Shown: in pieces, positions 3,125 to 64,000 of the stretch
Position numbering within the stretch: position 1 is the stretch's first letter
Layout of the letters: every line of letters begins with the position of its first letter
Made by a program: the position numbers and the translations under genes
Notes under the pieces: model-generated
Seen by the model: only the letters and a program-made list of their open reading frames with translations
Database searches by the model: none
Told to the model about the DNA's origin: nothing
NCBI GenBank assembly: GCA_031549965.1
Contig: JAVBPB010000003.1
Coordinates: 4,690 to 68,689 of the forward strand
Origin: Mobilisporobacter sp.
GTDB taxonomy: Bacteria; Bacillota; Clostridia; Lachnospirales; Lachnospiraceae
Reading direction: 5' to 3'
Length of the DNA stretch: 64,000 bases

Positions 3125-6100
3125 ATGAAAAAAATTCTAAAAGCATTTTCAATATTGATATTAACCACAGTCTTAATATCAATTCTAACCAGTGTATTTG
3201 GAGGATATGCCGGAGAAGAAATAAATGTTCAAAACAATCTTAATTTGAATAAACTAAAATCCAGAGGAGATACCATAAGAATCCTTGAAATAGTACCTCA
3301 TAAGGCAAAAACAACCCTGTCCTATATGATTAAAGGATATGAGCCTGTAAAAGCAAGAGACATTGTAGGTACACAACTAATAGACCTTGAGGACATATAT
3401 GGATATTATTCCGATGGAACTTATGTACCTAGTTCAACAGATGTTATAGATGCAACTCATAATGCTATGTATTATGAAAGACTTTATTACATGACAGATG
3501 TTTTTAAAAGATCTCTATTTGGTGCAACAGCAAAAATAGAATTAACAGTAGCTACACCAAGTATGCTAAATGCTGATTTATCATTAATAAGTACTGCCGA
3601 TTTAATATATATATCAGATACAGGATACGAAAAGGCAGAATATTTATATGTAAATAAAGTATTAGGTATTACAGATTCTAATTTAGCTGACCAAGAGGTA
3701 GAAAAAATAAAAAACACTACATTTAAATCAGATAACAATGATTTAACATGGAATACGGTAAAAAAATTATACGAATATGTAGCTATAAATGAATATCCTA
3801 TTATACTTAGCTCATCTATATATGATGGTAATAATACAACAAATAATGTAGATAAATTAATTATAATGCTTTGTCAGGTTAGAGATTTTAAAGATGTATT
3901 AGCATCATATATTAATTGGAACACTGGAGAATATAAACATGCAGGTGTATTTACAAATGAGTGGGATCATAAATGGACTATTGATGATACAAACCATTCT
4001 ATTAATTCATATTTTATTCCACCTGGTGGTGATGTTACAACATACCTAAATGCAGTTATAAATAAGAATATAATGTTATTTAATGGTAACGATGTGATTA
4101 CAGATGGAAATAATACAAGGATTACAGGGAATGCATTTAATAAATTAGTTAATGAAGAATATAGGGCATATGATGGTATAGTTGAAGATTCACAGGACGG
4201 AAAGGATATTTGCGATGTACCGGAAGATATGAAATATATTGATGTTGTAAAATATATAATAGGTCATGGAAAAATCAAGGAAGTTATAAAAAGTACAGAT
4301 ACTATAAGTACTATTAAGCCATTTAAAATATTAGAAGTTGAACCATGTAAATCATTTAAAGTTAAGAGTATAATAGAAGCAGCAGGATATTCTGTAAATA
4401 GGCCAGATTCTAAATTCCATGTTGTGGAAATGACATCACATTCATTTAATACAATTCATGAAGATTTAGTTTCGGATTATGATTTGATTATAATGGGATT
4501 GACGACTGGAAATATGAATGTATATTCAGGTTCAGGTAAAACTCAATATAATGACATTAGTTTAGATGGTAAAATATATTTACACATTGGTGATCTTGTA
4601 AGAGCTACTGTACATATATATCCAAAGCAGGAGGAGGTAAATGGAAACACTTATAAAGTTGATTCCGCTGGGTATACAAGATATAATGGTAATGATATTA
4701 CAAATTTAAAAAGAGCACAATTGGATAATTTTATAGAAAAGGGATTGAGAATTATCGTTGATGAAAATATGTTTTTAAATAATAATGTTAATTCACAATT
4801 AATTGATAATAGCTCGGTAATTTTTAAATTCTTAAATGAAAACATAAGCAAAGCTAATTTAAAAAAATACAACTACAATAACTTGTTTTCAGAAATAACT
4901 AAAGCAATGTTTTCAGAAAGTCCAAAACCTAAATTGGAAATGTTAGAATCACCAATTGAATATGTTGATTTTAATTCACAAGTACCAAGTAGGGTTGTTA
5001 ATGAAGATATTATTTCAACTTTAAAATACAAGTTTAGAGTTGGAGATCAAACAGACGAAACATATTCATATAAATTAATATTGGATGTTGATGGTGATGG
5101 AAGATTTGATGATACAAAAAAGGATTCGAAGGACATAAATATTGGGGCAGTAGTTGTAGAAAGCTCTAGCAGTCCTATTAAGCCAGGTAGTCTTTGTAAT
5201 ATTAGCTATGATGTTCAAAGAAATTACACAGGTTTAATAACATGGAAAATCGAAGTAACAAGTAGCAATGGTTTAACCTCATACAAAGTAGGGCATTGTG
5301 CTATAATGGGGAAAAAGCAAAAAGTGAGAGTATTGCAAATTATTCCAGATGCTACCCAGCTAAATTTTGAAACAAATCTTAATAGCCTAATTACAGGAAT
5401 ACCAGGTTTTGATTTTGATGTAAAAGTTGTATCAATTTCAACATTTAATGGGTGGTATGTAGGTAAACCTTATAAAAGAGATAATATAAACTCAGATCAA
5501 TTAATGAAAAATTATGATATGATAATTTTAGGATTTTGGGATTCATTTAATGGCAAAGACATAGCTAATACTAATGGTGAATTAGATAATTTAGAAGAGT
5601 ATATTGAATCACAAAGAATTGTTTTATTTTCTCATGATACTACAGGGTTTTATGTAAAATCAGGAAGCTTTGCAAAAAATATAACAGATAGATTTAGAAA
5701 CATATTAGGAATGGATAGATTTGGTTTGCATAAAGTATGGAAAGCAGGAGAAAGCCCAAATGATTCAGTGAGAGAAAGTGATAAGAATTATATAACTTCT
5801 ACTAGAAGCGGAAAAATTAGTACCGCAATAGAGGCTATTACGGATACATTTTTACTTAGATATCCAGCCTATGGAGCAAATGAAAGTAAACAATTGGCAC
5901 CATTTTTAGGACAGATTAATAGAGGTGATACATCAAATACTAGCTATGATTATAATGAGAATATAGTTACGACTAAAGCGGCAAAAGTAAATGAAGGTGT
6001 TATCTCAATATATCCATATAAAATTAGCTTTGATTTAGACAACTTTTTGGGAATAGCATCAACTCATGCACAATACTTTGCATTAGACATGGAAGATGAT

Positions 6101-50073: not shown

Positions 50074-50394
50074 CTTATCACCTCACTTGCATATTAAATA
50101 TATTATAATTAAACATACATCGCCTGTCAAGGTATATTTAATTGTAATGTATATTAAATTGTAAAAAAGCTCATTTTAGTCTTTCTAACAAAGTAAAACA
50201 AGGCATTTACACTTCCAAAAGAATATCGAGTCATAATATCAAAACTTCCTCATATATGTAACCAAATTGTCTAATATGTATACAATAAATTAAAGCAAGT
50301 ATTTATCTTATTGGTAAAAAATTACAACTACTTTTGTACTACTTGCTTTTATATGTAAGATGGAAAGGAAATGTCTCGAGTGAGGAGAAATTAT

Positions 50395-51597
50395 ATGAAT
50401 TCACAAGAAATATGTGACAGTAATAGCTACAATTCTCAAGAATGCAATAGATGTTGCTATAGAGGACCTAAGGGAGACAAAGGCGAAAAAGGAGATCAAG
50501 GTCTACAAGGCTGTCCAGGTTCCCAAGGTTTACCCGGTCCAAAAGGAGATAAAGGAGATCCCGGAGAACGAGGTTATCAAGGAATTCCCGGTCCACAGGG
50601 TTCAAAGGGAGATTCTGGATGCAGAGGCCCCCAAGGTGAACGTGGCCCAAGAGGTCCACAAGGCTTTCAAGGCCCAGAAGGTCCAAGAGGATGCAAAGGT
50701 GAAATGGGTCCCCAAGGTTGCCAAGGTGCAAGAGGTCCAAAGGGTGAACAAGGACCGCCAGGCCCAAAAGGAGAACCAGGAGTGCAGGGAATCCCCGGAA
50801 AAGCAGGTTGCCCTGGACCCCAAGGTCCTCAAGGATGTCATGGTACTCAAGGTCCAAAAGGAGAACAAGGACCCCCAGGTCCAAAAGGAGAAACAGGAGA
50901 TTGTGGTCCATCAGGTCCTCAGGGAATACAAGGACCTCAAGGTATAAAAGGAGAAAAAGGTTGCCCAGGTCCAAAAGGAGAACCGGGAGATATGGGAGAA
51001 CAAGGCCCAAAAGGAAATCAAGGACCTCCAGGTCCAAAAGGAGATCCAGGTTTAAGAGGTCCAAAAGGAGATAAAGGAGAATGTGGACAGCCAGGTCCAA
51101 GGGGATGTAAAGGTCCAAGAGGTCCAAAAGGTCCACAGGGAGAAAAGGGTGAAAGAGGAGAAGCAAAAATTATGGCTTTTGGCTCTCTTTATCAGCCTTG
51201 TATGTGCGAAGAAAGATACAAAAATATCGAATTTATGGAAACTGGGCCTTGCTATGGAGTGAGAGTGGATACGCAAGATAGTAGTTTTACAATATGCGAA
51301 GAAGGGACATATAGTATTAACTTTTCTTTAACTCTCATTCTTGAAAGGTGTAAAGCAGTAAATAAAGCCTTTGGTTTATTTATTAATGAAAATTTAATTG
51401 AAAATTCCATTATAGAACAGATGTTAGTGCCTATTCAAAGTTGTAAATGTAGATATTATGCAATTGCAACTACAGGAAAATCAATACAAATGTTTTTGTA
51501 TCATGGTGACACTTTAACATTAAGATTTTTAGATGAAAGAGAAGAAGATGGAATTATGTATAGTCATGCAGCATTTAATATTTTGCAGCTGATGTAA
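50395..51597 (+). CDS. Collagen-like protein 1: Cys-rich N-terminus, 78 Gly-X-Y triplets (10 Cys inside the helix), C1q/BclA-like C-terminal domain
   Basis: ATG at 50395 is 7 nt after GAGGAG. I counted the triplets by hand (nt 50464-51165). The 143-aa C-terminus shows a jelly-roll-like pattern (...[14 protein letters not shown]...GDTLTLRF...). Confidence 0.85.
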
Positions 51598-51650
51598 CTA
51601 AGCAGAAAAGGCTGTTGTAAACAGTTAATTTATTGAAAGGGTTGAAAGTT

Positions 51651-53243
51651 ATGGCAAGAAATGATCAAAATGAACATCTTGATTACAGAAATAACGATAA
51701 AAAATGTTATTGTAATGACTTTATAGATGAAATTTATAAAAAGGAATGCTGGGAAGAGGAGGATGAACAACATAAATGTAAGGACTGTAATATTGATGAA
51801 TGTATAGGGCCAGTAGGACCAAAAGGAGATACTGGAGCAAAAGGTAAACAAGGTCCTACTGGAAAAAAAGGTCCAAGAGGTTTAAAGGGAGAAACAGGAG
51901 ATAGGGGAGAACCAGGTTGCCCTGGACCACAAGGACCACAAGGACCAAAGGGTGCTACCGGATTAAAAGGGCCAAAAGGTGATGTAGGGGTAGCGGGTCC
52001 AAGAGGAATAAGAGGAATATTAGGAGCACAAGGACCAAAAGGAACTCCAGGTTTAGAAGGTCCAAGGGGCCCAATGGGAATTGCAGGACCAAAAGGTCCA
52101 AAGGGAGATATAGGATCACAAGGCCCTCAAGGAGAAACAGGTCCACAAGGTGATAAAGGTGATATAGGAATAAGAGGTCAAAAAGGTGAAATGGGATGTA
52201 TAGGAGAAACTGGAGATAAAGGAGAAAGAGGATTAAGAGGTCCGACAGGAGAAAGAGGTTGTTTAGGTCCAAAAGGTTCAGAGGGAATGAAAGGCCCTAC
52301 AGGTGATAAAGGTCCAAAAGGCCCAAAGGGTGATAAAGGTGAAGTAGGACCAGACGGTCCAAAAGGTCCAAAAGGAGATACAGGATCTCAAGGCCCAAAA
52401 GGTGATAAAGGAGATATAGGTCCTCAAGGAGAACAAGGTGATAGAGGAGACAGAGGAATACAAGGTGACCAAGGTGATAGAGGAGTAGAAGGCATTCAAG
52501 GAGAAAAGGGAGATATAGGACCTCAAGGTGAACAAGGAGATGTAGGACCAAGAGGTAATACAGGACCAAAAGGAGATATGGGAGCACAAGGCTATCAAGG
52601 AGAAGCAGGAGATATTGGTTTAGATGGAGAAAGAGGAGAACCGGGAGAAGATGGTATTATGGGTCCACAAGGTCAAAAAGGGGATACAGGACCAGAAGGA
52701 CCGGCAGGAGATAGGGGACTGGATGGAATTGATGGAGTAGATGGAGAAACGGGAGAAATAGGTGAAAAAGGAGACAAAGGTCTTAAAGGAAGAGATGGAG
52801 TAGTAATTCCTGTATCAATTTATAATGGAAAATTAGATGCACCTATTTCACCACCATATGATACATTAACTAAATTAAGCATACATGAAACTTTGGCTGG
52901 TGAGTTTACAATAATTGATGAGAATACAATAAGTGTAATAAAGGCGGGAGTATATTATTTTGAAACATCTGCAACTACAACATTTGTTACAGAGGGAAGT
53001 AATTATAATATCTGTACATTTACCATGAAACTTAACAATAATCTTGTTCAAGAAAGTATAATTAAATCTGTATTTAGATTGGCTGAAGTTACAGATGATT
53101 TGGAATTAAGTTATAATTATACAAAGATGTATCAAGTAAGTCTTTCAGAGGGTGATACAATCTATTTTGATTATATTTTAAATACAGGAAACCAACGTGA
53201 CATTTTGGATTTTAATGTGAGTATTTATAAAATTTCCATGTAA
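51651..53243 (+). CDS. Collagen-like protein 2: Cys-rich N-terminus, 111 Gly-X-Y triplets, C1q/BclA-like C-terminal domain
   Basis: Uninterrupted GXY from GPV (nt 51807) to GVV (nt 52805). C-terminus ...[15 protein letters not shown]...EGDTIYFDY.... Confidence 0.85.
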
Positions 53244-53268
53244 ATACACGATGAAAGGATGATCTTGA

Positions 53269-54825
53269 ATGAAAAGAAATAGAAATGAAAATGAACACGA
53301 TTATGATGATTATTGTTTGGAAGATTTGGAATGTGAACAAAAAATATGTAGGGATAAGGATATTGAAATTGGAGAAAGAGGACCAAAAGGACCAAAAGGT
53401 TATAAGGGCCCACGTGGAGATATAGGGTGTGTAGGTTTACAAGGAGAAGTTGGCTTTAAAGGTGAATGGGGATTACAAGGTGAGAAGGGACCACAAGGTC
53501 CAAGAGGTTTTGAAGGTGTTGAAGGAGATCAAGGTCAGCAAGGTGACAGGGGAGAAAAAGGTCCACAAGGTCCAATTGGACCAATGGGATATCAAGGCCC
53601 AAAAGGTGAAAAAGGAGATCAAGGTCCGGAAGGAGCACAAGGCCCACAAGGTTTGCAAGGCCCACAAGGCTCAAAAGGAGACAGAGGCCCACAGGGAATT
53701 ATAGGTTGCACTGGACCAAAGGGGCTTAGAGGAGATGATGGCCCAAAAGGACCAAAAGGAGATCCAGGTCTGCAAGGATGTAAAGGACCAAAAGGAGATC
53801 CAGGACCACAAGGTTTACAAGGTCCAACAGGTTATGCAGGCCCACAGGGATTAGAAGGTCCAAGAGGAGCACAAGGACCTAAGGGCGATCCGGGCGATCC
53901 GGGTGAACGTGGAGAACAAGGTGTAATGGGTTCTCAAGGAGATAAAGGTAACACAGGGCCACAAGGTCCAGATGGTATAACCGGAGAAATGGGACCACAA
54001 GGTGAGCAAGGTGAAAAAGGTCCAAAAGGGCTTGAAGGGTTAGCAGGAGAAATGGGACCACAAGGCATTCAAGGGCCAAAAGGAGACATAGGTCCGGATG
54101 GAGTAGAAGGAGACCCGGGTCCTCAGGGATATCAGGGAATAAAAGGAGATATAGGACCGGATGGTTTACAAGGACTTCAAGGAATGCAAGGGAGAAAAGG
54201 AGATAGAGGTTCAGATGGTGCAAATGGCCCTCAAGGTCCAAAGGGCGATGAAGGAGATCAAGGCCCAAAAGGACCAAACGGGTTAGCTGGTTTAGATGGC
54301 AAAGATGGAGCAAAAGGTGCAAAAGGATTGACAGGTGAAGATGGAGAGTCAGGAGACCGAGGAGACGATGCATTAGTAACAGGAAGTTATTTTGGAATGA
54401 AAAGTACAGTTCCTCACACCGGTGCAGTAGTTGTCGGAGCTAAACTTAATTTGGGTTCGGGTCAAATGAGTGGATTTATTCCTATGTCAACAGATGGAAA
54501 TACTACAGCCATACAATGTAATGGAAGCGGGCTATTTATGGTAACAGTTTCAGCTAGTATTCAATTATTGGTTGATGGTAGTTCTGGATACTATACTTGC
54601 AATACTGAAATAGGTATTTATGTTGGAGATACGCTTGTAGATAAATTAAAATGTGGTTTGGGATTTGTTGAAACACCTGATAGAAGAATCATAGGACATT
54701 ATGCAAATCAAAAAACTCTTATTCTTTCTATTGCCCCTAATAATGAATTAAATTTAAGATTTGTATCAGCTGATAAAGGTACTGCTTGCGGTAATTTGGT
54801 ATTTTCTGCTATACAATTGATATGA
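53269..54825 (+). CDS. Collagen-like protein 3: Cys-containing N-terminus, 111 Gly-X-Y triplets, C1q/BclA-like C-terminal domain
   Basis: Uninterrupted GXY from GER (nt 53371) to GDD (nt 54369). 151-aa C-terminus ...[13 protein letters not shown]...NNELNLRFV.... Confidence 0.85.
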
Positions 54826-54841
54826 TACGAGGTGAACAAGT

Positions 54842-56344
54842 ATGAAACATGAATATGAATATTGTAAAAAAGATAATTTTAAGTGTGGAATCTGTCCAGG
54901 TCCAACAGGACCCAAGGGTGATGTAGGGGATATGGGAGATATGGGGCCTGAGGGTCCACAAGGTCCACAAGGTCCAAAGGGTCCAAGTGGAGAAAAAGGT
55001 GCTAGAGGAGAAGATGGTATAGTTGGACCAAGAGGGAAAAAAGGAAATACAGGTTTGCAAGGACCAAAGGGAGAAACAGGTGAGGTTGGTCCACAAGGTC
55101 CACAAGGTCCCGAAGGCCCACAAGGTGTTACAGGAGATAAAGGAGATCAAGGCGTTAGAGGGCCACAAGGAGCACAAGGAGCACAAGGAGCAAAAGGAAT
55201 AGTTGGAGATATAGGTTCAAAAGGTTACATGGGTCCAAAAGGACCAAAAGGAGAAAAGGGTGGACCAGGAATTCAAGGAGATAAGGGTGCTACAGGACCA
55301 AAAGGAGAAAAGGGAGATCAGGGTTGTATTGGAATAAAAGGTGAAATTGGATGTCAAGGTCCAATTGGAATAAAAGGTCCAGCTGGTCCAAAAGGTCCGA
55401 CAGGAGATGAGGGAGATAAGGGACCAAAAGGAGAAGCAGGACCGGCCGGAGTGCAAGGACCAAAAGGAGAAACCGGAGAAATGGGTCCAAAGGGAGAAAA
55501 AGGAACTACTGGTGCCCCAGGACTAAAAGGATTAAAAGGAGAAACAGGAGATAAAGGAGACAAAGGAAGAACAGGAGAAATGGGACCACAAGGCTTAAGA
55601 GGAGAAACAGGAGATCAAGGAGTGAAGGGACCAGCCGGCCCAAGCGGTCATGAAGGTTCAAAGGGAGAAAGAGGTGACCGTGGAGCAGATGGTCCTAAGG
55701 GCATACAAGGTCTTCAAGGAGAAAAGGGAGAGCAAGGAGCAGCAGGACTTTCAGGGCCACAAGGTCCAAATGGAGAACCAGGCTCTATAGGACAAAAAGG
55801 AGAAAATGGAGAACCAGGTAAAAACGGAAATCCTGGCCCGACAGGTGACCAAGGAGATAAAGGTGCACAAGGGATAATCGGAGATTCGGGAGACGATGCA
55901 TATATGATAAATTCATATGGTTCAATGTATGGTGAAAATGAATCAAGAATGTCATACGCATCAATTGTTCTTTACGATAAGGAATCTGTTCCTGCATCAA
56001 ATGTAAATTGTCAGCCATTAATTGGAAAGATAACAATTAATAAAGCTGGAGTATATGCAGTTAGTTTTTCTACAACACTTAAGTTAACCAATCTTCCTGG
56101 TGCAATTGCGGCATATGTAAGATTAGAATTATATCTTAACGGAGTAACCACAGGTGATATCTTTGTGGATCACGGGCACGACAATGTTCAGCCGGATACT
56201 GATTTTATAACTGAATTTACTACTGGTAAATCTGTTATAAGAAACCTTAAGGAAGGTGATGTACTTGAAATTGCTTGTGTATCTTTAGCAGGTGAAGCTT
56301 TTTATAGTAATTCAAGTTTTAATATTGTTGGTGTTAATATTTAA
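54842..56344 (+). CDS. Collagen-like protein 4: Cys-containing N-terminus, 111 Gly-X-Y triplets, C1q/BclA-like C-terminal domain
   Basis: Uninterrupted GXY from GPT (nt 54899) to GDD (nt 55897). 148-aa C-terminus ...ITINKAGVYAVSFST...EGDVLEIAC.... Confidence 0.85.
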   Translation: MKHEYEYCKKDNFKCGICPGPTGPKGDVGDMGDMGPEGPQGPQGPKGPSGEKGARGEDGIVGPRGKKGNTGLQGPKGETGEVGPQGPQGPEGPQGVTGDKGDQGVRGPQGAQGAQGAKGIVGDIGSKGYMGPKGPKGEKGGPGIQGDKGATGPKGEKGDQGCIGIKGEIGCQGPIGIKGPAGPKGPTGDEGDKGPKGEAGPAGVQGPKGETGEMGPKGEKGTTGAPGLKGLKGETGDKGDKGRTGEMGPQGLRGETGDQGVKGPAGPSGHEGSKGERGDRGADGPKGIQGLQGEKGEQGAAGLSGPQGPNGEPGSIGQKGENGEPGKNGNPGPTGDQGDKGAQGIIGDSGDDAYMINSYGSMYGENESRMSYASIVLYDKESVPASNVNCQPLIGKITINKAGVYAVSFSTTLKLTNLPGAIAAYVRLELYLNGVTTGDIFVDHGHDNVQPDTDFITEFTTGKSVIRNLKEGDVLEIACVSLAGEAFYSNSSFNIVGVNI

Positions 56345-56519: not shown

Positions 56520-56863
56520 GGGGTTGTACTGGTTTCGACGGGGGTATTGAAATTATGGAAGCCATTCGTGGTCTGGGTCCACGTAAAAACCTGGAATTAA
56601 ATATAAACGCAGACGAAAATTTAGCGTACGCTGCCTAGTGGCAGCTGTCGACTCTAAGCAACTTGCGGCTTAGATGTTCGGCATCAACTTAGCAAGGCAC
56701 TTTGTTTTCAAAGCTTTGAGGAAATAAAAGAATTTATGAAGCTACTAAAGTCTTAAGCCTGTCATTGGGCGTAAGATAGAGGGAATGTTAAATTAATGAC
56801 TGTAATGGGAGATGCTACAATGGATAGACTTTCGGACAGGGGTTCGATTCCCCTCAGCTCCAC
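56520..56863 (+). ncRNA. ssrA: tmRNA (SsrA)
   Basis: 5' GGGGUUGUACUGGUUUCGACGGGGG. The 3' T-arm GGUUCGAUUCCCC is followed by the acceptor strand CAGCUCC pairing with GGGGUUG (G3:U pair) and discriminator A. Tag ORF GCA GAC GAA AAT TTA GCG TAC GCT GCC TAG = ADENLAYAA* (56609-56638). The CCA end is not fully encoded. Confidence 0.93.
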
Positions 56864-56880
56864 TAAAAAGGTAGAAATAA

Positions 56881-56976: not shown

Positions 56977-57192
56977 TTATTTATCCTCATTATTAGAACT
57001 AAATTTCGGATAAAATTTATCCATTTTATTAGCAGCTTGTTTTTCTTTACTCTTTATTAAGTGAGAATAAACATTAAGAGTGACATTCCTATCACTGTGA
57101 CCTAATCTGCTGCTTAAAGTTACAATATCTGTTTTTTCTGAAATAAGTAGACTAGCATTTGTATGACGCAGATAATGTGATGAAATTCGACA
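56977..57192 (-). pseudogene. C-terminal fragment (about 70 aa) of a tyrosine recombinase/integrase
   Basis: RISSHYLRHTNASLLISEKTDIVTLSSRLGHSDRNVTLNVYSHL... covers box II (HxLRH), LGH and the catalytic Tyr. The N-terminal about 380 aa are absent and the upstream frame has stops. Confidence 0.8.
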
Positions 57193-57515
57193 AAATAACA
57201 ACATAAACGATAAGGAACGCTGTCGAAGAACGGAAAGTAATAAGAATCAGTAATAGAAAGGCTACGATAAAAGTATTTTTGTGGTCTTTTTATTCTTAAA
57301 AAGCAAGTTAGAGTTGCATCTGAAAATCTATTATAGATTCTATAATCCTTTGTAAATAGATAAATTTTGGGTTAGTAATGTACGTTTGAAAAGCCAAGAA
57401 AGAGATTTACTTTTGATTGCAAATGAGCGATAATAAAAGCAAAGTAAATTAAGATATTCTAACAAAAAAATGCAATATTTGATTGCTTTGAAAGAATATC
57501 TCGGAGGTGATAATT

Positions 57516-60500
57516 ATGTTTGATGTCAAATGGGACACATTTAGTATAAAAAACAAAAATAAAGAAGATGCTTTTGAAACAATGTGTAGGCATCTGTTTT
57601 TTAGAAAGTTTAGTATTGATGGATACGGGTTTCAATCGAACTATAATCAAACAGGATTAGAAACACAGCCAATTAAATTCAATAATGAATGGTATGGGTT
57701 TCAATGTAAGTTTTCAAGCAGTAACAACAATGATGCCTTATACAAAGAGGTTTACACATCGCTAAATAAGGCCTACAAATGTTTTCCTAATTCAATTAAT
57801 CATATTTATATTTATACAAATGCAGATATTCAACCTATTTGCACTGATGACGAAATTAAAAATGCAAAAAAGATTAGCAATAGGATGAATATACAAATTG
57901 AAGCAAAAAAATATAATGTAGAACTGCATTGGATAAAAACAGAAAATTTCAACTCCATTTTGAATGAGCATTCCAATCTTGATATATATAAACTATATTT
58001 TTCTTCGCAGAATGAGTTAGCCTTTCTTGATGACTCAATTTCATTGCAGGATAGAACATTTTTAAATTCTAGTACTTTCTTGGATCTACACATAAATGGT
58101 AAAAGTTTTAATGGAACTATTGATGAAATTTTTAAAAATAAGTTGAGCCTAATAATAGGTAATGCCGGAACGGGTAAAACAGAACTTCTAAAAAAATTGT
58201 ATGTTTACTCATCTGATAGGTTTTTAGATACATATAAAAATGTATCTGTTGACATAGGGGTGTTACCCATTTTTTTGAGACTGAGAGAATGTGTACATGG
58301 TGATGTTGAAGGATTACTCAAACAAAGATTAATTGATTATAAAATCAATATTATCGATTGCACGTATGAACTTATATACTTTTTTGATGGGCTTGATGAA
58401 ATCTCTAATGCAGATATAGATAAAGTAATTTCATTTGTTAACTACTTATCGCAAAAAAGGAATACAAGATCTGTTCTTATATCATCTCGAAAAAGTACAC
58501 CTAATCTTCAGTATTTACATACCTTGATTGAGGTGGCACACTACGAGATTGATAAATTAAATATTGATTTCATAGATTTATATTTTTCTAATCGCAACGA
58601 TGGAACAAAATTGGATTTCTACCAATCAATAAAATCAGAAGTTGAATATTTATTATCTGAAATAGATGATATATTCTCGGTCAATCTACTTTGGCAGACA
58701 ATAGAATCTTTAGATGCTAATACTACAAAAATTGAATTAATTCAAAACTATGTTAATAAATTAATGTATACATCACATAGTATAAAATTATTGCCATTAC
58801 CAGAAATAAAGAGTGATAAAATTGAAGATATTTGTAGTGAGGTTGCTTTTTTCATGCAAGAAACGAATAGACTAAATATTGATTTAAGTGAATTACAAAA
58901 TATTTCTTTCGAACTATTCAAAAAGCTTTCATACACGGATATAGATAAAGTTATATTGTGTATTTCTGGAATGTTCTTTGATATTACTAATAAAAAAAGT
59001 CAACGTATATACTCATTTAAGCATCGAAGATATCAAGAGTATTTTCTATATAAAAAAATATCAAGCCTCTTTTTTGAAAATCCATTTATAATAAGAGAAT
59101 TGGGATTGCTGCCAAACAAGGATTTTGTATTAAGAATATTCCTAAAGCAATCTTTAAAAGATGCGCTAAGTAAAGGGGAGATGATTAAAGTCCTATCGCT
59201 TAGATTTTTTGAGGCATATCTAGGCTCAGATTATTGGTATGACTACAAAGATTCATTAATTGGTGTTAGGAGTGATTATGGTGTTGGCGATGAATCTTAT
59301 TTAAGTTCAAATGAAATATTAATCACACTTGCTATTAGGCCACTAGAAGAACTATGTTTGCTGCTAGAAAATGAAGCCTTTTCATTAAAGAATTTTCTTT
59401 CAGAAGACAATTATTGGAATTTTGTAAAAGAATACTACCGCTTTAATAAATGTGATGTTAGACAAACCTTGTTGAAGTATTACAAATTAGATAGTGATGT
59501 CATAAAAAAATCCATAAATAAAGCACCATGTGAATATTGGTACTGTGTTTGTCAATTAGACAAATATGATCCAAAAGATATTTTAGAAGACACAATAAAA
59601 AAGCTGCAATTTGATAAATTAAATTTTGATTTTATAGCCTTTTCGAAGGAAAATTTATCAATTGCGTCAGGTTATTTCAAAATGCTTTTGGATATAAATT
59701 ATAATCTGATTCCTGACATTATTGATATGATTAGTGTTGAACTTTTGGAAATCTTTAGCTTTGATATTTTACGAAATGGTAATATCCGCTATTTATTTGA
59801 TGAGAGTCCATTGAATAAATCTATACATGAAAAACTCATTCTTAGGATAGATACCAACCCCGATGTTGATTACCAAGTCAATACTTTAGCCTTATATGCA
59901 ATTTTATCCAAGAAAATAATAAGACAAGAACTCCTTGAGGCTAGGTTTTCAAAAGTTAATAAAAATCATCATATAACATGGGAGCAAAACATTGAATTAA
60001 ACTGCCATATTGTGAATCTATTGGGAGTAGATCAAAATTTGTACTCTATTGATTGCCTTCTTGGTTGTGAGATAAGAAAAATCGTTTTGGAACTTTACCC
60101 CCAAAACAAAGATAAAGTTCTTGATTCAATTATCGACGCAGTAAAAAAATACAATTTACTATATGAAAATTGGTTTTTGGTAGACAATTCAAAATTAATA
60201 GGGGCGATTGTTGCCCAACTAAGTTTTAATGACAATTTATTAAAAGAATTTGTAAGCAAACTATATAATTATCAAAGTGTTATATCGTTGACTATTGTTC
60301 TTGAATACATCTTGGTTAATAATCAAGAATTGTTTCTACTTTTAGTTAATGAGAATTTGCTAAAGAAATTAAATATAGAGGCAATAAAGCAACTCGGCTA
60401 TTATGAATATAACTCAGATACTGACTTTATATTTTCTACAATGTTCTCGAAGATTAATAAAGCCGAGAGTTACAAATGTTTAATCAGAGGAATAAACAAT

Positions 60501-61616
60501 AGTATTTATCGACCTGCGTTTAGAAAGGAAGATGTGGTCGATTCAGTTTTGCCAGAATGTTTATTACTTTCTAGTCAAAATCATTGGTACTCTGAAATAG
60601 AACTAGAATCCATGTCGTATAGAATTTATAGCTTGCTTAAGATTATGACTGAAACTACTGATAAAGGGTCATGTATGGCATATTTTAAGTATGTTTTAGA
60701 GGCTTGTTTACCCCAATCTAGTATTTTGGATGATTTGTATGATGAAGCACCTTATAATCCGCTCCCCAAAAATAATATAAAAGAAAATACCCGAAATTGC
60801 GATTTTAAACAAATAGATAAGGAAAGCATTACTGATTATTATGAATGTAAAATTTCGGAAGCGCCTTACTATAATTTAGGCTTTTGGAAAGAACTAATTA
60901 GTATAGAGAAAGCTTTCGATGATGATCTTCATTCTCTATTTTCTGTTCTTCAAGAAAACCACTACCCAGAACCATACGGCGGAAAAATAAATGAGTATTT
61001 TCCAATTATAACGGCGGCATTGCTATCTGATACTCACTTGTCTGACATAAGTACTAGATTTATTTTAAAACAAGGAGGGCGTTCAGGATTAATTAACATG
61101 ATAAAAAGCTTTTCTTTAATGGGCGATTCTGAAAATGCCAGTCTTTATATAAATCAAATTTTCAAATTGACAGAAGCACTGGTATTCCAAAACGAAACAA
61201 TATATAATTCTCAACAATATAAGTATTCTATATCTTCTGAAACATTGGACTTAGTATTTAACAGTAAAAAAGACGACTGGATTACACATGAATCAGAGCA
61301 GAAAAAAACTCATAAAAATAACCCTCGCGTCAAAATAATTAAAGATGATATAGGTGAACTTGAGGGGTTTCATGAAAAATGGGCAATCGAACATATAAAT
61401 CCTGAGGCTTATAAAGTAAATATAGGCATTTATCATGATGACAATTTATTAATGACTTTGATACTAATATACGTTGATGGATATAGAGCATTGCTTCCGA
61501 TTCCTATGAATGGAAGTAGTGTTATTCAGAGAAAAATGTATAATTTTGCGTTGTTGTTTAATGATGAAAAAACTTTAAACTCATATATTAGAGCATCTAA
61601 ATTGCTAGTAGATTAA
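57516..61616 (+). CDS. STAND/NACHT-type P-loop NTPase with N-terminal Mrr-like PD-(D/E)xK nuclease domain and about 1070-aa C-terminal helical region (NLR-like; candidate antiphage sensor)
   Basis: ATG at 57516 is 8 nt after GGAGG. N-terminus EDAFETMCRHLF...QTGLETQP...WYGFQCKF...IYIYTNADI (Mrr-like D/E...QxK). Walker A GNAGTGKT (58158-58181). NACHT-type Walker B LIYFFDGLDE (58371-58400). No repeats recognised in the remainder. Confidence 0.75.
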   Translation: MFDVKWDTFSIKNKNKEDAFETMCRHLFFRKFSIDGYGFQSNYNQTGLETQPIKFNNEWYGFQCKFSSSNNNDALYKEVYTSLNKAYKCFPNSINHIYIYTNADIQPICTDDEIKNAKKISNRMNIQIEAKKYNVELHWIKTENFNSILNEHSNLDIYKLYFSSQNELAFLDDSISLQDRTFLNSSTFLDLHINGKSFNGTIDEIFKNKLSLIIGNAGTGKTELLKKLYVYSSDRFLDTYKNVSVDIGVLPIFLRLRECVHGDVEGLLKQRLIDYKINIIDCTYELIYFFDGLDEISNADIDKVISFVNYLSQKRNTRSVLISSRKSTPNLQYLHTLIEVAHYEIDKLNIDFIDLYFSNRNDGTKLDFYQSIKSEVEYLLSEIDDIFSVNLLWQTIESLDANTTKIELIQNYVNKLMYTSHSIKLLPLPEIKSDKIEDICSEVAFFMQETNRLNIDLSELQNISFELFKKLSYTDIDKVILCISGMFFDITNKKSQRIYSFKHRRYQEYFLYKKISSLFFENPFIIRELGLLPNKDFVLRIFLKQSLKDALSKGEMIKVLSLRFFEAYLGSDYWYDYKDSLIGVRSDYGVGDESYLSSNEILITLAIRPLEELCLLLENEAFSLKNFLSEDNYWNFVKEYYRFNKCDVRQTLLKYYKLDSDVIKKSINKAPCEYWYCVCQLDKYDPKDILEDTIKKLQFDKLNFDFIAFSKENLSIASGYFKMLLDINYNLIPDIIDMISVELLEIFSFDILRNGNIRYLFDESPLNKSIHEKLILRIDTNPDVDYQVNTLALYAILSKKIIRQELLEARFSKVNKNHHITWEQNIELNCHIVNLLGVDQNLYSIDCLLGCEIRKIVLELYPQNKDKVLDSIIDAVKKYNLLYENWFLVDNSKLIGAIVAQLSFNDNLLKEFVSKLYNYQSVISLTIVLEYILVNNQELFLLLVNENLLKKLNIEAIKQLGYYEYNSDTDFIFSTMFSKINKAESYKCLIRGINNSIYRPAFRKEDVVDSVLPECLLLSSQNHWYSEIELESMSYRIYSLLKIMTETTDKGSCMAYFKYVLEACLPQSSILDDLYDEAPYNPLPKNNIKENTRNCDFKQIDKESITDYYECKISEAPYYNLGFWKELISIEKAFDDDLHSLFSVLQENHYPEPYGGKINEYFPIITAALLSDTHLSDISTRFILKQGGRSGLINMIKSFSLMGDSENASLYINQIFKLTEALVFQNETIYNSQQYKYSISSETLDLVFNSKKDDWITHESEQKKTHKNNPRVKIIKDDIGELEGFHEKWAIEHINPEAYKVNIGIYHDDNLLMTLILIYVDGYRALLPIPMNGSSVIQRKMYNFALLFNDEKTLNSYIRASKLLVD

Positions 61617-61695
61617 ATGTTCCTTCAGATATAGAAGATTATTTAAGGGCTATCAATAAATTTTGCGGAAATAATAATCCTTTTTAGAATTATAG

Positions 61696-61736
61696 GTCTA
61701 TCAGAAGCCAAAGGTGACTTTTGATAGACTTGTTTA
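61696..61736 (+). terminator. Terminator-like hairpin after the STAND gene
   Basis: GTCTATCAGAAG / CTTTTGATAGAC (one G:U pair), 10-nt loop, followed by TTGTTTAATAATT. Confidence 0.55.
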
Positions 61737-61785
61737 ATAATTAATAAAAAGTTGAATAATTTTTTAGTGTGTGCTTGACATACGG

Positions 61786-62997
61786 GTGTCTTAATCCATG
61801 AAAAGTTAATTTTGGTAAATTATTTTGTTTTATAAAATCAGTAAACCATTGATAGGGTCTTGATGGTGACATAGGTTCACCTGATTCATGCCTAAAAACA
61901 TAAATACTTTCTATAAAAGAATCTCCTAATTTTTCTTTACATTCATCAAGATACAGTTTATATTCTTTTAAAATATTAATAACAGTTGGTGATAAGGTAA
62001 TGGTTCTAAGCCCATTTTCTGTTTTAGGCTCATTAACAATAATACTACCATACTCCTTAGCAACACGCTGACGTTGTTGTGTTACTTGTAATGTCCCATT
62101 TTCTAAATTAATGTGATTGTTTTCTAGACCTGCAATTTCACTAATTCGTAGACCAGAGTCTATAGTAAGGTAAATAATTGTTTTGTATTTTTTTGGTGCA
62201 GTTTCAAGAGCTTTAAACAAATTATTTAATTGAATTTCATCATAGTACATTGGCTTTGTCTTTTTTACTTTTGGGACTCTAACACGTTCAGCAGGATTGC
62301 TTAAAATTAAATTATTTCTTTTAGCTTCTGATAGAATTGTTGAAATTATATCATGATGATGTTTAATTGTTTTGTCAGAAAGTTTTTCTTGTCTATGCTC
62401 TAAAATAAATGATTTGCTTAATGATAATTCAAAGTGCTCACATATTTTTGTAGCTGTTTTTAAATCTGTTCGTTCCCCATTTCTAATTCTTATAAATGTT
62501 TTAGATGTTATACCAATTTCAGAATTGGATTTTGATGTTTTAACACCTTTTAATAAATTAATAACAATTTCGTTTGGTTTGTAGTAATTATCTAATCTCG
62601 CTCCTTCCTCAGAAAGATAATTGTAAAAGCCCTCTAAATGATGTGGCTGAATTTGAGATAGTTTTAAATGTCCAATTTCTGGAATGATTCTTTCTTTTAA
62701 TCTCACTTCATAATTGGGAAGAGTTGATTTTGCAAGTTGCTTTTTAGCATAATCATTGAACCACTTAAGAGCAAATTCTCTGAAAGTTATATTTTCACCA
62801 TCTAAGTATGTGCCTTTTTGTACTTCTTCTTCAAAAATTATTTTTTGACGTTCCAATTCTTTTTGAAGCTGTTTTTGAGTCAATTTGATATCAATTTTAA
62901 TTGTTTTCTTCTTATATTTTTTACGTCCTTTTTCATCATAACCACAACTTACAGTTAGACGGTAAGTATCATTACAACGTTTTTCAATACTTGCCAT
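61786..62997 (-). pseudogene. Tyrosine integrase lacking its C-terminal catalytic end (truncated right after box II HGLRH)
   Basis: Arm-binding-type N-terminus (MASIEKRCNDTYRLTVSCGYDEKGRKKYKK...), core-binding and catalytic Arg region (...DSGLRISEI...). Homology ends at ...LTFHGLRH, followed by 14 unrelated codons (PYVKHTLKNYSTFY) and a stop at 61741. No LGH...Y is present. Confidence 0.75.
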
Positions 62998-63074
62998 TAT
63001 TATATGCTCCTTTCTTAAATTAAAGTATAAAGGTCAATAACCTAGCGGTAGTTTACGAGTTATGAAGTAAAAGT

Positions 63075-63107
63075 GCTGCAAATCCGCTTGTACAGCGGAT
63101 TTGCAGC
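63075..63107. repeat. GC-rich perfect 13-bp inverted repeat just 3' of the transposase stop (IS-internal terminator or terminal structure)
   Basis: GCTGCAAATCCGC-TTGTACA-GCGGATTTGCAGC. Confidence 0.7.
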
Positions 63108-63122
63108 AGCTACTAAAACTAC

Positions 63123-64000
63123 CTAACTCTTTTTTTCATACATTTTTAGCCCTAACGCATCCATCAGATTTTCGGTTTGTTCACAGGGCATAGATACGGA
63201 ATATCCTTCTTTCAGCTTACGCTTCTGTTGATAATAGTGTACATATTGCTTTTTCTTTCCAAGTGTTTCAAGCATATCATTTATTCCGATCTGTATTCCT
63301 TGAGCGGCTAATTCTTTTTTCAATAGATAACATAAGCGAACTGCCATTACGCAACAGAATAGATGTACCCGAATTTTCTGATCTGTCCAACAAAAAAGTG
63401 GACGAACTGTCAGATAATCTGCATCCTTCATTTGCCGGAAGGTGTGTTCAAGCCTCCAGGCACTACGATATGCTTTGATAATCTCTTCACTTTCCCATTC
63501 CGACTGGTCTGTAAAAAGCACTGTCTTTCCCAACTCATGTTCTTTGAGCCAGTCCAATTCCTCTTTGTTGTATCTCCATTCCAGTACTGGAATACCATCT
63601 TCTCCGTCCCTTACTTCATAATGAAATAGAGTTTTTATATATTCAATAGACAAAATTTTGTCCATATTTTTCTTAATACTTTCTACGGTAGGCTTCTTTC
63701 CGCCTTTGACCTGACTACTACGGCGTTTTTCTAACCGTTCTTCTAAATCTCTGATCTTTTCTATGCACTGAGTTTCGTTTTTGACGATTCCCTGCAACTG
63801 CCCATCTAAGAGAGCAGGATTTCTTGTTGAAATAATCGTATGTTCTTTCCCATACACTTCTCCTTTGGTACGATAGTACGTCATTCCAGACAACTCTTTT
63901 GAACGAGCTTCTTGATACTGAGAGTCGGGTACTTCAAAGAGTTCTTTACACTGATTTTTCTTTAAGCCACCTACATAACAGAACGTATTTTCTGTTTCTG
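63123..64000 (-). mobile_element. IS4-superfamily (IS1634-like) transposase, C-terminal part; the ORF runs off the window end
   Basis: The minus-strand frame is open from 64000 to the stop at 63123. ...TVLFTDQSEWESEEIIKAYRSAWRLEHTFRQMKDADYLTVRPLFCWTDQKIRVHLFCCVMA... shows the YREK-type region of DDE transposases. Visibly more GC-rich than its surroundings. Confidence 0.7.

Follow-up and report, generated by a model that had tools for sequence, protein, structure and literature searches.

A cassette without a recombinase gene, apparently inserted at the box II histidine codon of an ssrA-islet integrase, and a family of serine-recombinase elements with similar ends

The window considered here is a stretch of 64,000 nucleotides from Mobilisporobacter sp. 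(contig JAVBPB010000003.1, positions 4,690 to 68,689). Beside its transfer-messenger RNA (tmRNA) gene, ssrA, lies a small genomic islet whose tyrosine integrase gene is in two pieces, with 4.6 kb of foreign DNA between them (Table 1). The foreign DNA carries one cargo gene only, which runs antisense to the integrase and encodes a NACHT-type NTPase. At issue is how this DNA came to interrupt the integrase, and to what family of elements it belongs.

The borders of the islet are clear. Assembly L001 reaches 6.2 kb past the window end, which brings the DNA inspected to 70 kb. An exact 30-bp copy of window 56837-56866 lies in this extension (L001 3634-3663), 9.7 kb off. This repeat means that the ssrA 3' end holds an integrated islet of 9.7 kb; blastn with the ssrA 3' end finds a single attL/attR pair as its bounds. 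Both marks of an ssrA-targeting tyrosine-integrase island are present, the integrase next to the ssrA 3' end and the repeat at the far border.

An earlier note on this DNA had placed the features on their correct strands, and had described an integrase that is normal as far as KLTFHGLRH and then runs into 14 unrelated codons and a stop. This description stands. As called, the N-side open reading frame (ORF; 61741-62997, minus strand, 418 amino acids) passes KLTFHGLRH, enters the foreign tail PYVKHTLKNYSTFY, and stops 14 codons past LRH. The C-side ORF (56977-57204, minus strand, 75 amino acids) reads MLLFCRISSHYLRHTNAS...LGH...Y, and its upper end runs on through element DNA. The LGH motif and the catalytic Tyr are on this separate piece (56977-57165), and no one polypeptide of the islet integrase holds the intact catalytic domain, that is, the RKHRH pentad together with the Tyr.

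The closest full-length integrases are P0002 (466 amino acids) and P0003 (468 amino acids). By BLASTN, positions 3770-4986 of contig L003 correspond to window 62997-61787, and positions 4985-5142 to window 57165-57008. Homology that ends at 61787 resumes at 57165 (L003 4986 and 4985); therefore, both truncations map to the same nucleotide of one homologue, which answers the alignment of breakpoints that the earlier note had proposed. Contig L006 gives the same two-part match. The note had also proposed a comparison of related ssrA loci, and here L006 supplies an intact relative of the integrase adjoining the 3' end of ssrA. The P0002 loci (L003-L005), with the closest intact homologue at 67% identity, are not beside ssrA; the genes after their integrase are a ParB_N gene and one for a RepB-like regulator, which points to a relative of the islet that is episomal or has a different target.

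Read on the integrase sense strand, with a slash at each junction, the N side is TTT CAT GGA TTA AGA CA/C CCG TAT GTC AAG..., and the C side is ...TCA CAT TAT CTG CGT CA/T ACA AAT GCT.... The only bases common to the two are CA, inside the last His codon of the motif HxLRH. Removing 57166-61786 and one CA in silico gives an ORF of 1398 nucleotides, with 465 codons and no stop, reading ...AGACATACAAAT... across the restored junction. It aligns end to end with P0002 and P0003, at amino acid identities of 67.6% and 64.6% in the N part, and of 75.0% and 78.7% in the C part. No base is gained or missing at the insertion site; the target was neither lost nor duplicated. The fragments are thus complementary, as the earlier note had held, and rejoin to 465 amino acids rather than about 455. 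Nucleotide homology also moves the limits of the insert, from the 57193-61785 given before to 57166-61786.

The difference between these limits is instructive. Directly upstream of the C-side CA lie 24 nucleotides that read RISSHYLR in frame with the integrase, and these match L003 at 9 of 24 positions; the N fragment matches it at 19 of 24 over the same motif. These 24 nucleotides are therefore not integrase DNA. They are one end of the insert, called here the P arm, and because this arm imitates the target motif, the downstream fragment seems to keep an HxLRH of its own. The earlier note had reported that both fragments keep HxLRH, in different codings (cat tat ctg cgt cat versus cat gga tta aga cac). 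The codings do differ, and the N-side motif is genuine; the C-side copy is encoded by the end of the insert, and not by a second integrase. The resemblance is not random (p about 2-3e-4, whether judged against six-frame positions of the window or against composition-matched random 24-mers).

The ends of the insert have little else in common. They show no terminal inverted or direct repeats, as noted before, and share CA only. No transposase gene is in the insert, and the inverted repeats with a 2-13 bp target duplication that would mark an insertion sequence or transposon are absent. No attC-like structure was found at the insert ends, and the junctions lie at CA within a coding motif, which does not describe an integron cassette; nor were group II intron ends found at the insert. 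A search for copies of the insert elsewhere returned no exact protein record in another context, and no phage record.

Table 1. Features of the split integrase, its insert and the surrounding islet (window coordinates), with relatives that have both junctions and no large serine recombinase (LSR) gene.
Feature	Position or length	Strand	Basis or remark
tmRNA gene (ssrA), tag ADENLAYAA	56520..56863	+	ARAGORN; integration target of host islet
attL core of ssrA islet	56837..56866	+	blastn, ssrA 3' end against window and L001 extension
C-terminal part of split integrase, His405 to stop (61 codons and stop), with LGH and catalytic Tyr	56977..57165	-	Pfam Phage_integrase positions 126-169 of 172
Putative crossover dinucleotide CA, attR-side copy	57164..57165	-	sole identity between junctions
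Inserted element without recombinase, 4621 bp	57166..61786		removal with one CA restores integrase ORF; no LSR gene
P arm, 24 nucleotides reading RISSHYLR in frame with C part (CAY nnn YTn MGn before CA)	57166..57189	-	motif mimic
Cargo: NACHT (STAND) NTPase with Avs4-like N-terminal nuclease domain, 1366 amino acids from ATG	57516..61616	+	full-length homologues named NACHT domain-containing protein
Strong hairpin 3' of cargo gene, inside element	61692..61733	+	dG -19.9 kcal/mol, z = -5.4, 0/200 shuffles as stable
P' arm, CCCGTATGTCAAGCACACACTAAAAAATTATTC..., supplying tail PYVKHTLKNYSTFY and stop of N-side ORF (ends 61741)	61747..61786	-	match to L038 element end and family matrix
Putative crossover dinucleotide CA, attL-side copy	61787..61788	-	sole identity between junctions
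N-terminal part of split integrase, 404 codons, ending ...KLTFHGLR and CA	61787..62997	-	Pfam Phage_int_SAM_3; Phage_integrase profile positions 5-137 of 172
IS1634-family insertion sequence, 1958 bp, perfect 23-bp terminal inverted repeats	63041..64000, running off window end to L001 5221	-	NCBIfam transpos_IS1634 E=2e-74
Relative L108	4346 bp		one 1323-amino-acid protein: DUF4297/LmuA-like nuclease and P-loop NTPase
Relative L103	5430 bp		L108-type cargo at 92% identity and three small ORFs
Relative L060	5117 bp		type IIG restriction-modification enzyme and 380-amino-acid ORF with Fic-like HPFxxxNGxxGR motif (by eye)
Relative L072	2263 bp		small ORFs only
Relative L057	L057 56-503, 448 bp		one 103-amino-acid ORF; family P' end and HDMR-coding P end, between integrase box II halves

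The other end of the insert, the P' arm, recurs elsewhere. Among the best 120 integrase homologues, two (38-39% identical) break directly after LRH into the same foreign peptide: P0064 reads ...VTFHGLRH/PYVKHTTKKY..., and P0112 reads ...IHLHSLRH/PYVKLKLKNN.... This element end (CCCGTATGTCAAGCACAC..., read PYVKHT..) follows ...HxLRH in at least 240 public contigs; the junction pattern, CAYNNNYTNMGNCACCCNTATGTCAAG, matched at least 120 stretches in each of the metagenome and viral collections. In nearly all of the 240 loci, the frame of a tyrosine integrase, of very diverse kinds, ends in ...HxLRH and enters PYVK[HPL]TTK.... A pattern that includes the target would, of course, be biased toward it. 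With the element end alone (CCCGTATGTCAAGCMCACGACAAAAA) as the query, full HxLRH coding was upstream in 112 of 118 junctions, and HDIRH or HETRH in four more. CA is present at every junction of the family. The 185 loci that could be scored fall into 74 target clusters at 50% amino acid identity, and element ends at least 90% identical over 200 nucleotides adjoin many integrases, in one example as 38 copies in 16 clusters. Near-identical ends in so many clusters are direct evidence of movement between targets.

In 155 of the 240 loci, genes for large serine recombinases lie downstream, antisense to the integrase, most often as three consecutive genes directly past the junction. Relatives, L038, L141 and L117 among them, carry one or three such genes inside the insert, always in this orientation, and every LSR tested has the Resolvase, Recombinase and Zn_ribbon_recom domains. 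The commonest members (L163 722-5526, L234, L042, L175) have three consecutive LSR genes directly after the P' junction; the far ends and cargo of these triple-LSR members are outside the fetched flanks.

The insert in L038, which with L036 is a contig of P0112, can be read from end to end. It is 7039 bp long, has both junctions, and carries only genes antisense to the integrase: an LmuB-like SMC ATPase, a type II methyltransferase, a helix-turn-helix protein, and an LSR of 503 amino acids, whose best NCBIfam match is XisF, below the cutoff of that model. This LSR gene starts about 100 nucleotides from the far junction, past which the integrase C part resumes as ...CGC ATA CAC GCA CTT AGG CA/T ACA AAC GCC. 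The P' arm of the window matches the end of the L038 element at 26 of 31 positions, in the same position; the two have no other sequence in common. Against the position matrix of the family, from +14 to +40 (a part not fixed by the first pattern), the window P' arm scores 22.5 bits, a value reached at no other of the 127,880 positions of the window.

P arms are known at 13 loci (L038, L141, L117, L089, L155, L164, L198, L233, L238, and L318-L321). The commonest is TTTTCCGCTTCCACGAGCTTAGG followed by CA, read FRFHELR/H; that of L038 is CGCATACACGCACTTAGG and CA, reading RIHALR; that of the window is TCATCACATTATCTGCGT and CA. All of these P arms fit CAY nnn YTn MGn CA, which are the invariant positions of any coding of H-x-L-R-H. 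The P' arm has the matching constrained positions of the downstream codons only in part. From this pattern we infer that the recombinase would read the invariant codon positions, and that the element's own site would have to present them too. The target of the family, on these comparisons, is the His codon of box II (HxLRH) in the tyrosine recombinase genes of other elements.

Joints in which a P arm meets a P' arm across CA occur at L089 8253, L155 7722, L164 10339, L198 2598, L233/L238, and L321. Such P-CA-P' joints would indicate tandem accretion, or possibly circular forms. Because attR looks like attB, a second element can land beside the first. At about 3130 of the viral contig L322, a closely similar P' variant, CTCGTATGTCAAGCACACACTAAAAA, stands beside a triple-LSR module with no integrase coding upstream; this could reflect a secondary site or another target specificity. 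Annotated examples are scarce in the databases: one phage record, itself unannotated, and no plasmid.

A hidden Markov model of integrase C-termini located further far junctions. Five relatives have both junctions and no LSR gene (L108, L103, L060, L072, L057; Table 1). The smallest, L057, looks like a solo remnant or a derivative of the kind of a miniature inverted-repeat transposable element. The L141/L053 element (6112 bp) joins cargo of the L103/L108 type, at 82-85% identity, to an LSR of 523 amino acids. L103 and L108 are in unrelated integrases despite a common, LSR-free P end (142 nucleotides, 85% identical), which argues that cassettes without a recombinase do move. The window cargo has the same orientation and spacing as that of L108, L103 and L141. 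As for the features of a non-autonomous cassette, the window copy has both junctions intact, no LSR, and one known context; L103 and L108 have different targets. Other small members carry PifA (E=1.5e-65) and a ThsA Macro-domain protein (E=1.8e-40). Nearly all of the small-element cargo that can be named consists of known or candidate defence genes, including LmuB-like ATPase with methyltransferase and the nuclease-NTPases; four ORFs, two small ones in L117 and two in L038, received no name.

The cargo gene of the window may start instead at GTG 57507, for 1369 amino acids, and a GGAGG box is at 57504-57508. PADLOC reports Avs4 at E=5e-26, over residues 4-234 only, and the NCBIfam Avs4 model gives E=2e-29 and 101 bits, below its curated cutoff of 1500. 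The protein has the Walker A motif GNAGTGKT; some of its homologues carry PF05729, and it has no Pfam match of its own. The nearest homologue is 54% identical. From the P' arm inward, the element consists of about 170 nucleotides, the 3' end of the cargo, the antisense gene itself, and then about 340 nucleotides, all of them non-coding, to the P arm. The hairpin in the short interval is probably a terminator. A promoter scan was uninformative in this AT-rich DNA. Among 28 loci of cargo homologues, only one has LSR genes nearby: in L011 (125-3268, 6001-10113) a homologue 36% identical is about 2.7 kb from two LSR genes, with no integrase fragments.

The host islet has been damaged elsewhere as well. 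An IS1634-family insertion sequence, with its inverted repeats at L001 5221-5243 and 7156-7178, lies 44 bp upstream of the integrase start codon, and belongs to the islet rather than to the inserted element. Thus, the islet integrase has taken two insertions, one in the promoter region and the other within the coding region. Without the cassette and this insertion sequence, the islet is about 3.1 kb, and consists of the integrase and four small ORFs, one with a weak match to UPF0175 antitoxins. The remaining window is ordinary chromosome of a spore-forming Firmicute (gap-pgk-gpmI, RNase R, SpoIVB). Just upstream of ssrA (50371-56344) are several tandem genes, for example 53269-54825 and 54842-56344, with strong local GC and AT skew. 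Their products are collagen-like proteins with G-x-y repeats and a C-terminal domain free of repeats, and they resemble exosporium proteins of the BclA type.

These observations make it very probable that the integrase of the window islet was hit once, by an element of an LSR family that targets the box II coding of tyrosine recombinases. A circular form with the site P-CA-P' would have recombined with the integrase site B-CA-B'. Its LSR would have made a 2-bp staggered cut, followed by subunit rotation, to give B-CA-P' at 61786/61787 and P-CA-B' at 57165/57166; the joint of the circle, with the ends of the insert joined, would read ...CTGCGTCACCCGTATG.... That the junctions share only CA is as expected for a serine-recombinase crossover. 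Of the features of an LSR element, the window copy has the 2-bp junction and the match of P' arm and target; it does not encode an LSR. It may have arrived as a recombinase-less cassette mobilised in trans, or it may have lost its LSR after arrival, and these two histories are rated about equal.

Such an event bears on what was proposed before. The earlier note had considered a mechanism that targets integrase genes by cassette exchange; the targeting is in essence borne out, as site-specific insertion of an LSR element at the box II His codon, and the exchange is not. It had also judged that this was no simple insertion with a target duplication, which holds for one half only: the insertion took place in a single step, and the shared 2 bp are a crossover, not a duplication. 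That the islet is now integrase-dead and fixed is plausible, with the Tyr separated from the rest of the enzyme and no serine recombinase in the 70 kb examined. With its integrase cut off from LGH and the catalytic Tyr, the islet would be immobilised together with its NACHT gene as long as no cognate LSR is available.

Several observations weigh against this interpretation. Neither the insert nor the 70 kb examined has an LSR gene or a remnant of one, by tblastn with the L038 LSR even at E=10, and the recombinase step is therefore taken from the relatives. That the LSRs of the family catalyse attP x attB recombination is likewise to be presumed, from a family known through its sequences alone. 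The window P arm has no significant nucleotide homology to the sampled P arms beyond the pseudo-codon pattern, and an exact-match scan with it found no viral contig. Some P arms (L060, L103, L108) are 1 nucleotide shorter, so that the mimicry is not strictly codon-phased. No circular form, no empty-site allele of this integrase, and no second copy of the cassette were found. Finally, the idea that this cargo gene generally resides inside integrases was abandoned: only 2 of the 28 homologue loci have any integrase nearby, and none of these is split.

One other account of the P arm was tried. The ends of the insert, when joined, form a mini-ORF (MLLFCRISSHYLRH-PYVKHTLKNYSTFY and stop) that might have been a relic of a second Xer-like recombinase. 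Pfam finds nothing in the joined peptide; the restored true integrase sequence scores E=0.014. Translated in three frames, the insert flanks gave no additional match to integrases. In the light of the relatives, mimicry by attP replaces the idea of a relic.

Four rival histories deserve to be weighed. In one, an autonomous LSR element inserted first and its recombinase was deleted in place afterward, so that only the order of events differs from the arrival of a cassette. This is a real contender, with a little less than even probability. L141, with cargo and LSR together, is the type of ancestor it expects; 340 bp of non-coding DNA stand between P arm and cargo start, where relatives have the LSR; and the cassette is known in one genomic context only. 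It must, however, explain why no LSR remnant is found even at E=10, and why the P arm and the exact junction are intact, and L103 and L108, with their common LSR-free P end in unrelated integrases, indicate that cassettes do move. As its first option, the earlier note had considered that tandem ssrA islands once supplied two related integrases, that each of these lost an end at box II, and that the NACHT gene was captured between them. Tandem arrays at tRNA and tmRNA sites are common, and both fragments do appear to keep HxLRH. Yet the breakpoints coincide to the nucleotide, and the exact complementarity of the pieces, which restore one 465-codon ORF, rules out two independently truncated integrases. 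Further, the 24 nucleotides upstream of the C fragment are not integrase DNA, only one attL/attR pair bounds the islet, and one and the same foreign tail follows hundreds of integrases that are unrelated to each other; this history can be regarded as refuted.

Random illegitimate insertion at a 2-bp microhomology in box II would account for the 2 bp common to the junctions, for the missing terminal repeats, and for an insert with no recombinase. It would leave to chance that ends of the same family as this one occupy precisely this codon elsewhere, that the P arm resembles the motif beyond random expectation, and that the target was kept to the base, and it is hardly credible. An assembly chimera at 57.2 or 61.8 kb, which the earlier note had named as a danger, is suggested by nothing other than the unusual structure. 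L001 and L002, two independent assemblies made from other sequencing runs, have this arrangement too and span both junctions at 99.99-100% identity; junctions of this type also occur on independent contigs from other organisms. An artifact of assembly can practically be dismissed.

The preferred reading, insertion by an element of the LSR family, suggests a broader hypothesis, held tentatively and with somewhat less than even confidence. This is that there exists a large family of elements, abundant in gut Firmicutes and in viral contigs, and ranging from triple-LSR members to defence cassettes of 2-7 kb, some without an LSR, that would home into the HxLRH His codon by way of a site that imitates the motif. 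They would disable, and on excision could exactly restore, the mobility of their host elements, whether prophages, integrative conjugative elements (ICEs) or islands, and would deliver anti-phage genes to these; the window would hold an LSR-less member. If this is true, a lineage of recombinases recognises the DNA for the catalytic motif of a protein, and any element with a tyrosine recombinase is a landing pad. It would be a conflict between mobile elements aimed at the mobility gene of the rival. It would also offer a concrete way for prophages and islands to acquire single-gene defence systems (NACHT/Avs-like, PifA, ThsA, type IIG restriction, nuclease-NTPases). Because serine recombinases excise conservatively, the host element could be reversibly locked by the insertion. 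For the window, the hypothesis would account for the immobilised state of an ssrA islet that carries a defence gene. Some integrases annotated as "truncated" in genomes may be explained in this way, and HxLRH followed by PYVK... would be a simple marker with which to find such elements and to correct calls of integrase pseudogenes.

How does this compare with what is known? In the literature searched, LSR elements were found for traG, maff2, snf2, hsdM and others, and no publication names box II of tyrosine recombinases as an LSR target. So far as found, the family would seem to be undescribed; absence from the literature is, of course, not proof of novelty. Serine-integrase integrative mobilizable elements (IMEs) and ICEs of streptococci integrate inside traG, maff2 and snf2 of Tn5252-type ICEs (Coluzzi et al. 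2017, PMC5357655; Ambroset et al. 2016, PMC4701971). They share with the present family single or triple large serine integrases, the site-specific disruption of a gene of another element, junction repeats of 2-8 bp, a fixed orientation to the target, and nested ("matryoshka") and tandem structures. The targets differ, since HxLRH codons of tyrosine recombinases are absent from the target lists of those studies (PMC5357655, PMC4701971). Here, the target is the coding of a protein motif in at least 74 unrelated clusters, rather than one orthologous gene; the small members carry defence genes, not mobilisation genes; and the window copy has no recombinase.

Also comparable are the Tn1806-like triple-integrase ICEs, which enter hsdM, snf2 and Eco57I-type methyltransferase genes, and whose nesting in a resident ICE has been shown by conjugation (PMC12942858). 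They too have three consecutive LSR genes at one end, as do L163, L234 and L042, and they too enter several different genes with a conserved family motif and integrate in nested fashion. They differ in the family of the target and in their 4-bp repeats of the TGGG/GGGA type, in contrast to CA, and the present family is known from sequence only. Multi-targeting LSRs with complex target motifs have been described, and there too members of one LSR clade can go into many genes; neither the main text nor the supplements of that work name an integrase gene as a target (Durrant et al. 2022, PMC10083194). The example given there has a TT core; the present family has CA.

Many known LSRs of the TnpX, TndX and Durrant type carry DUF4368, unlike those tested in this family, which have the Resolvase, Recombinase and Zn_ribbon_recom domains only. 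Tn4451/Tn4453 (TnpX) and Tn5397 (TndX) have a 2-bp crossover at both ends, with a GA core, and a circle joint that resembles the target. The crossover of 2 bp and the likeness of joint to target are found in the present family as well; the core is CA rather than GA.

Cargo that lies between recombination sites, without its own recombinase, has precedents. Some (CIMEs) are att-flanked remnants of ICEs or IMEs (PMC12084326). The window copy shares this plan with CIMEs and with integron cassettes, and the word "cassette" fits it. Integron cassettes, most of which lack a promoter, depend on folded attC sites and on a tyrosine recombinase, IntI. The window element, in contrast, has arms of the LSR type, and a cargo gene preceded by 340 bp of non-coding DNA and followed by a strong hairpin. 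Mobilisation in trans within the family is suggested by L103 and L108 only.

Lastly, elements that interrupt a gene and are excised by an LSR are well known: skin in sigK, SPbeta in spsM, the A118-type prophage in comK, and the fdxN element with XisF. Those interrupt developmental genes of the host and bring their own recombinase; here, the split gene is the integrase of a second mobile element, and the window copy brings none. To propose a switch function for this insertion would be speculation. In both cases, an LSR-type element splits a gene that its conservative excision would restore exactly.

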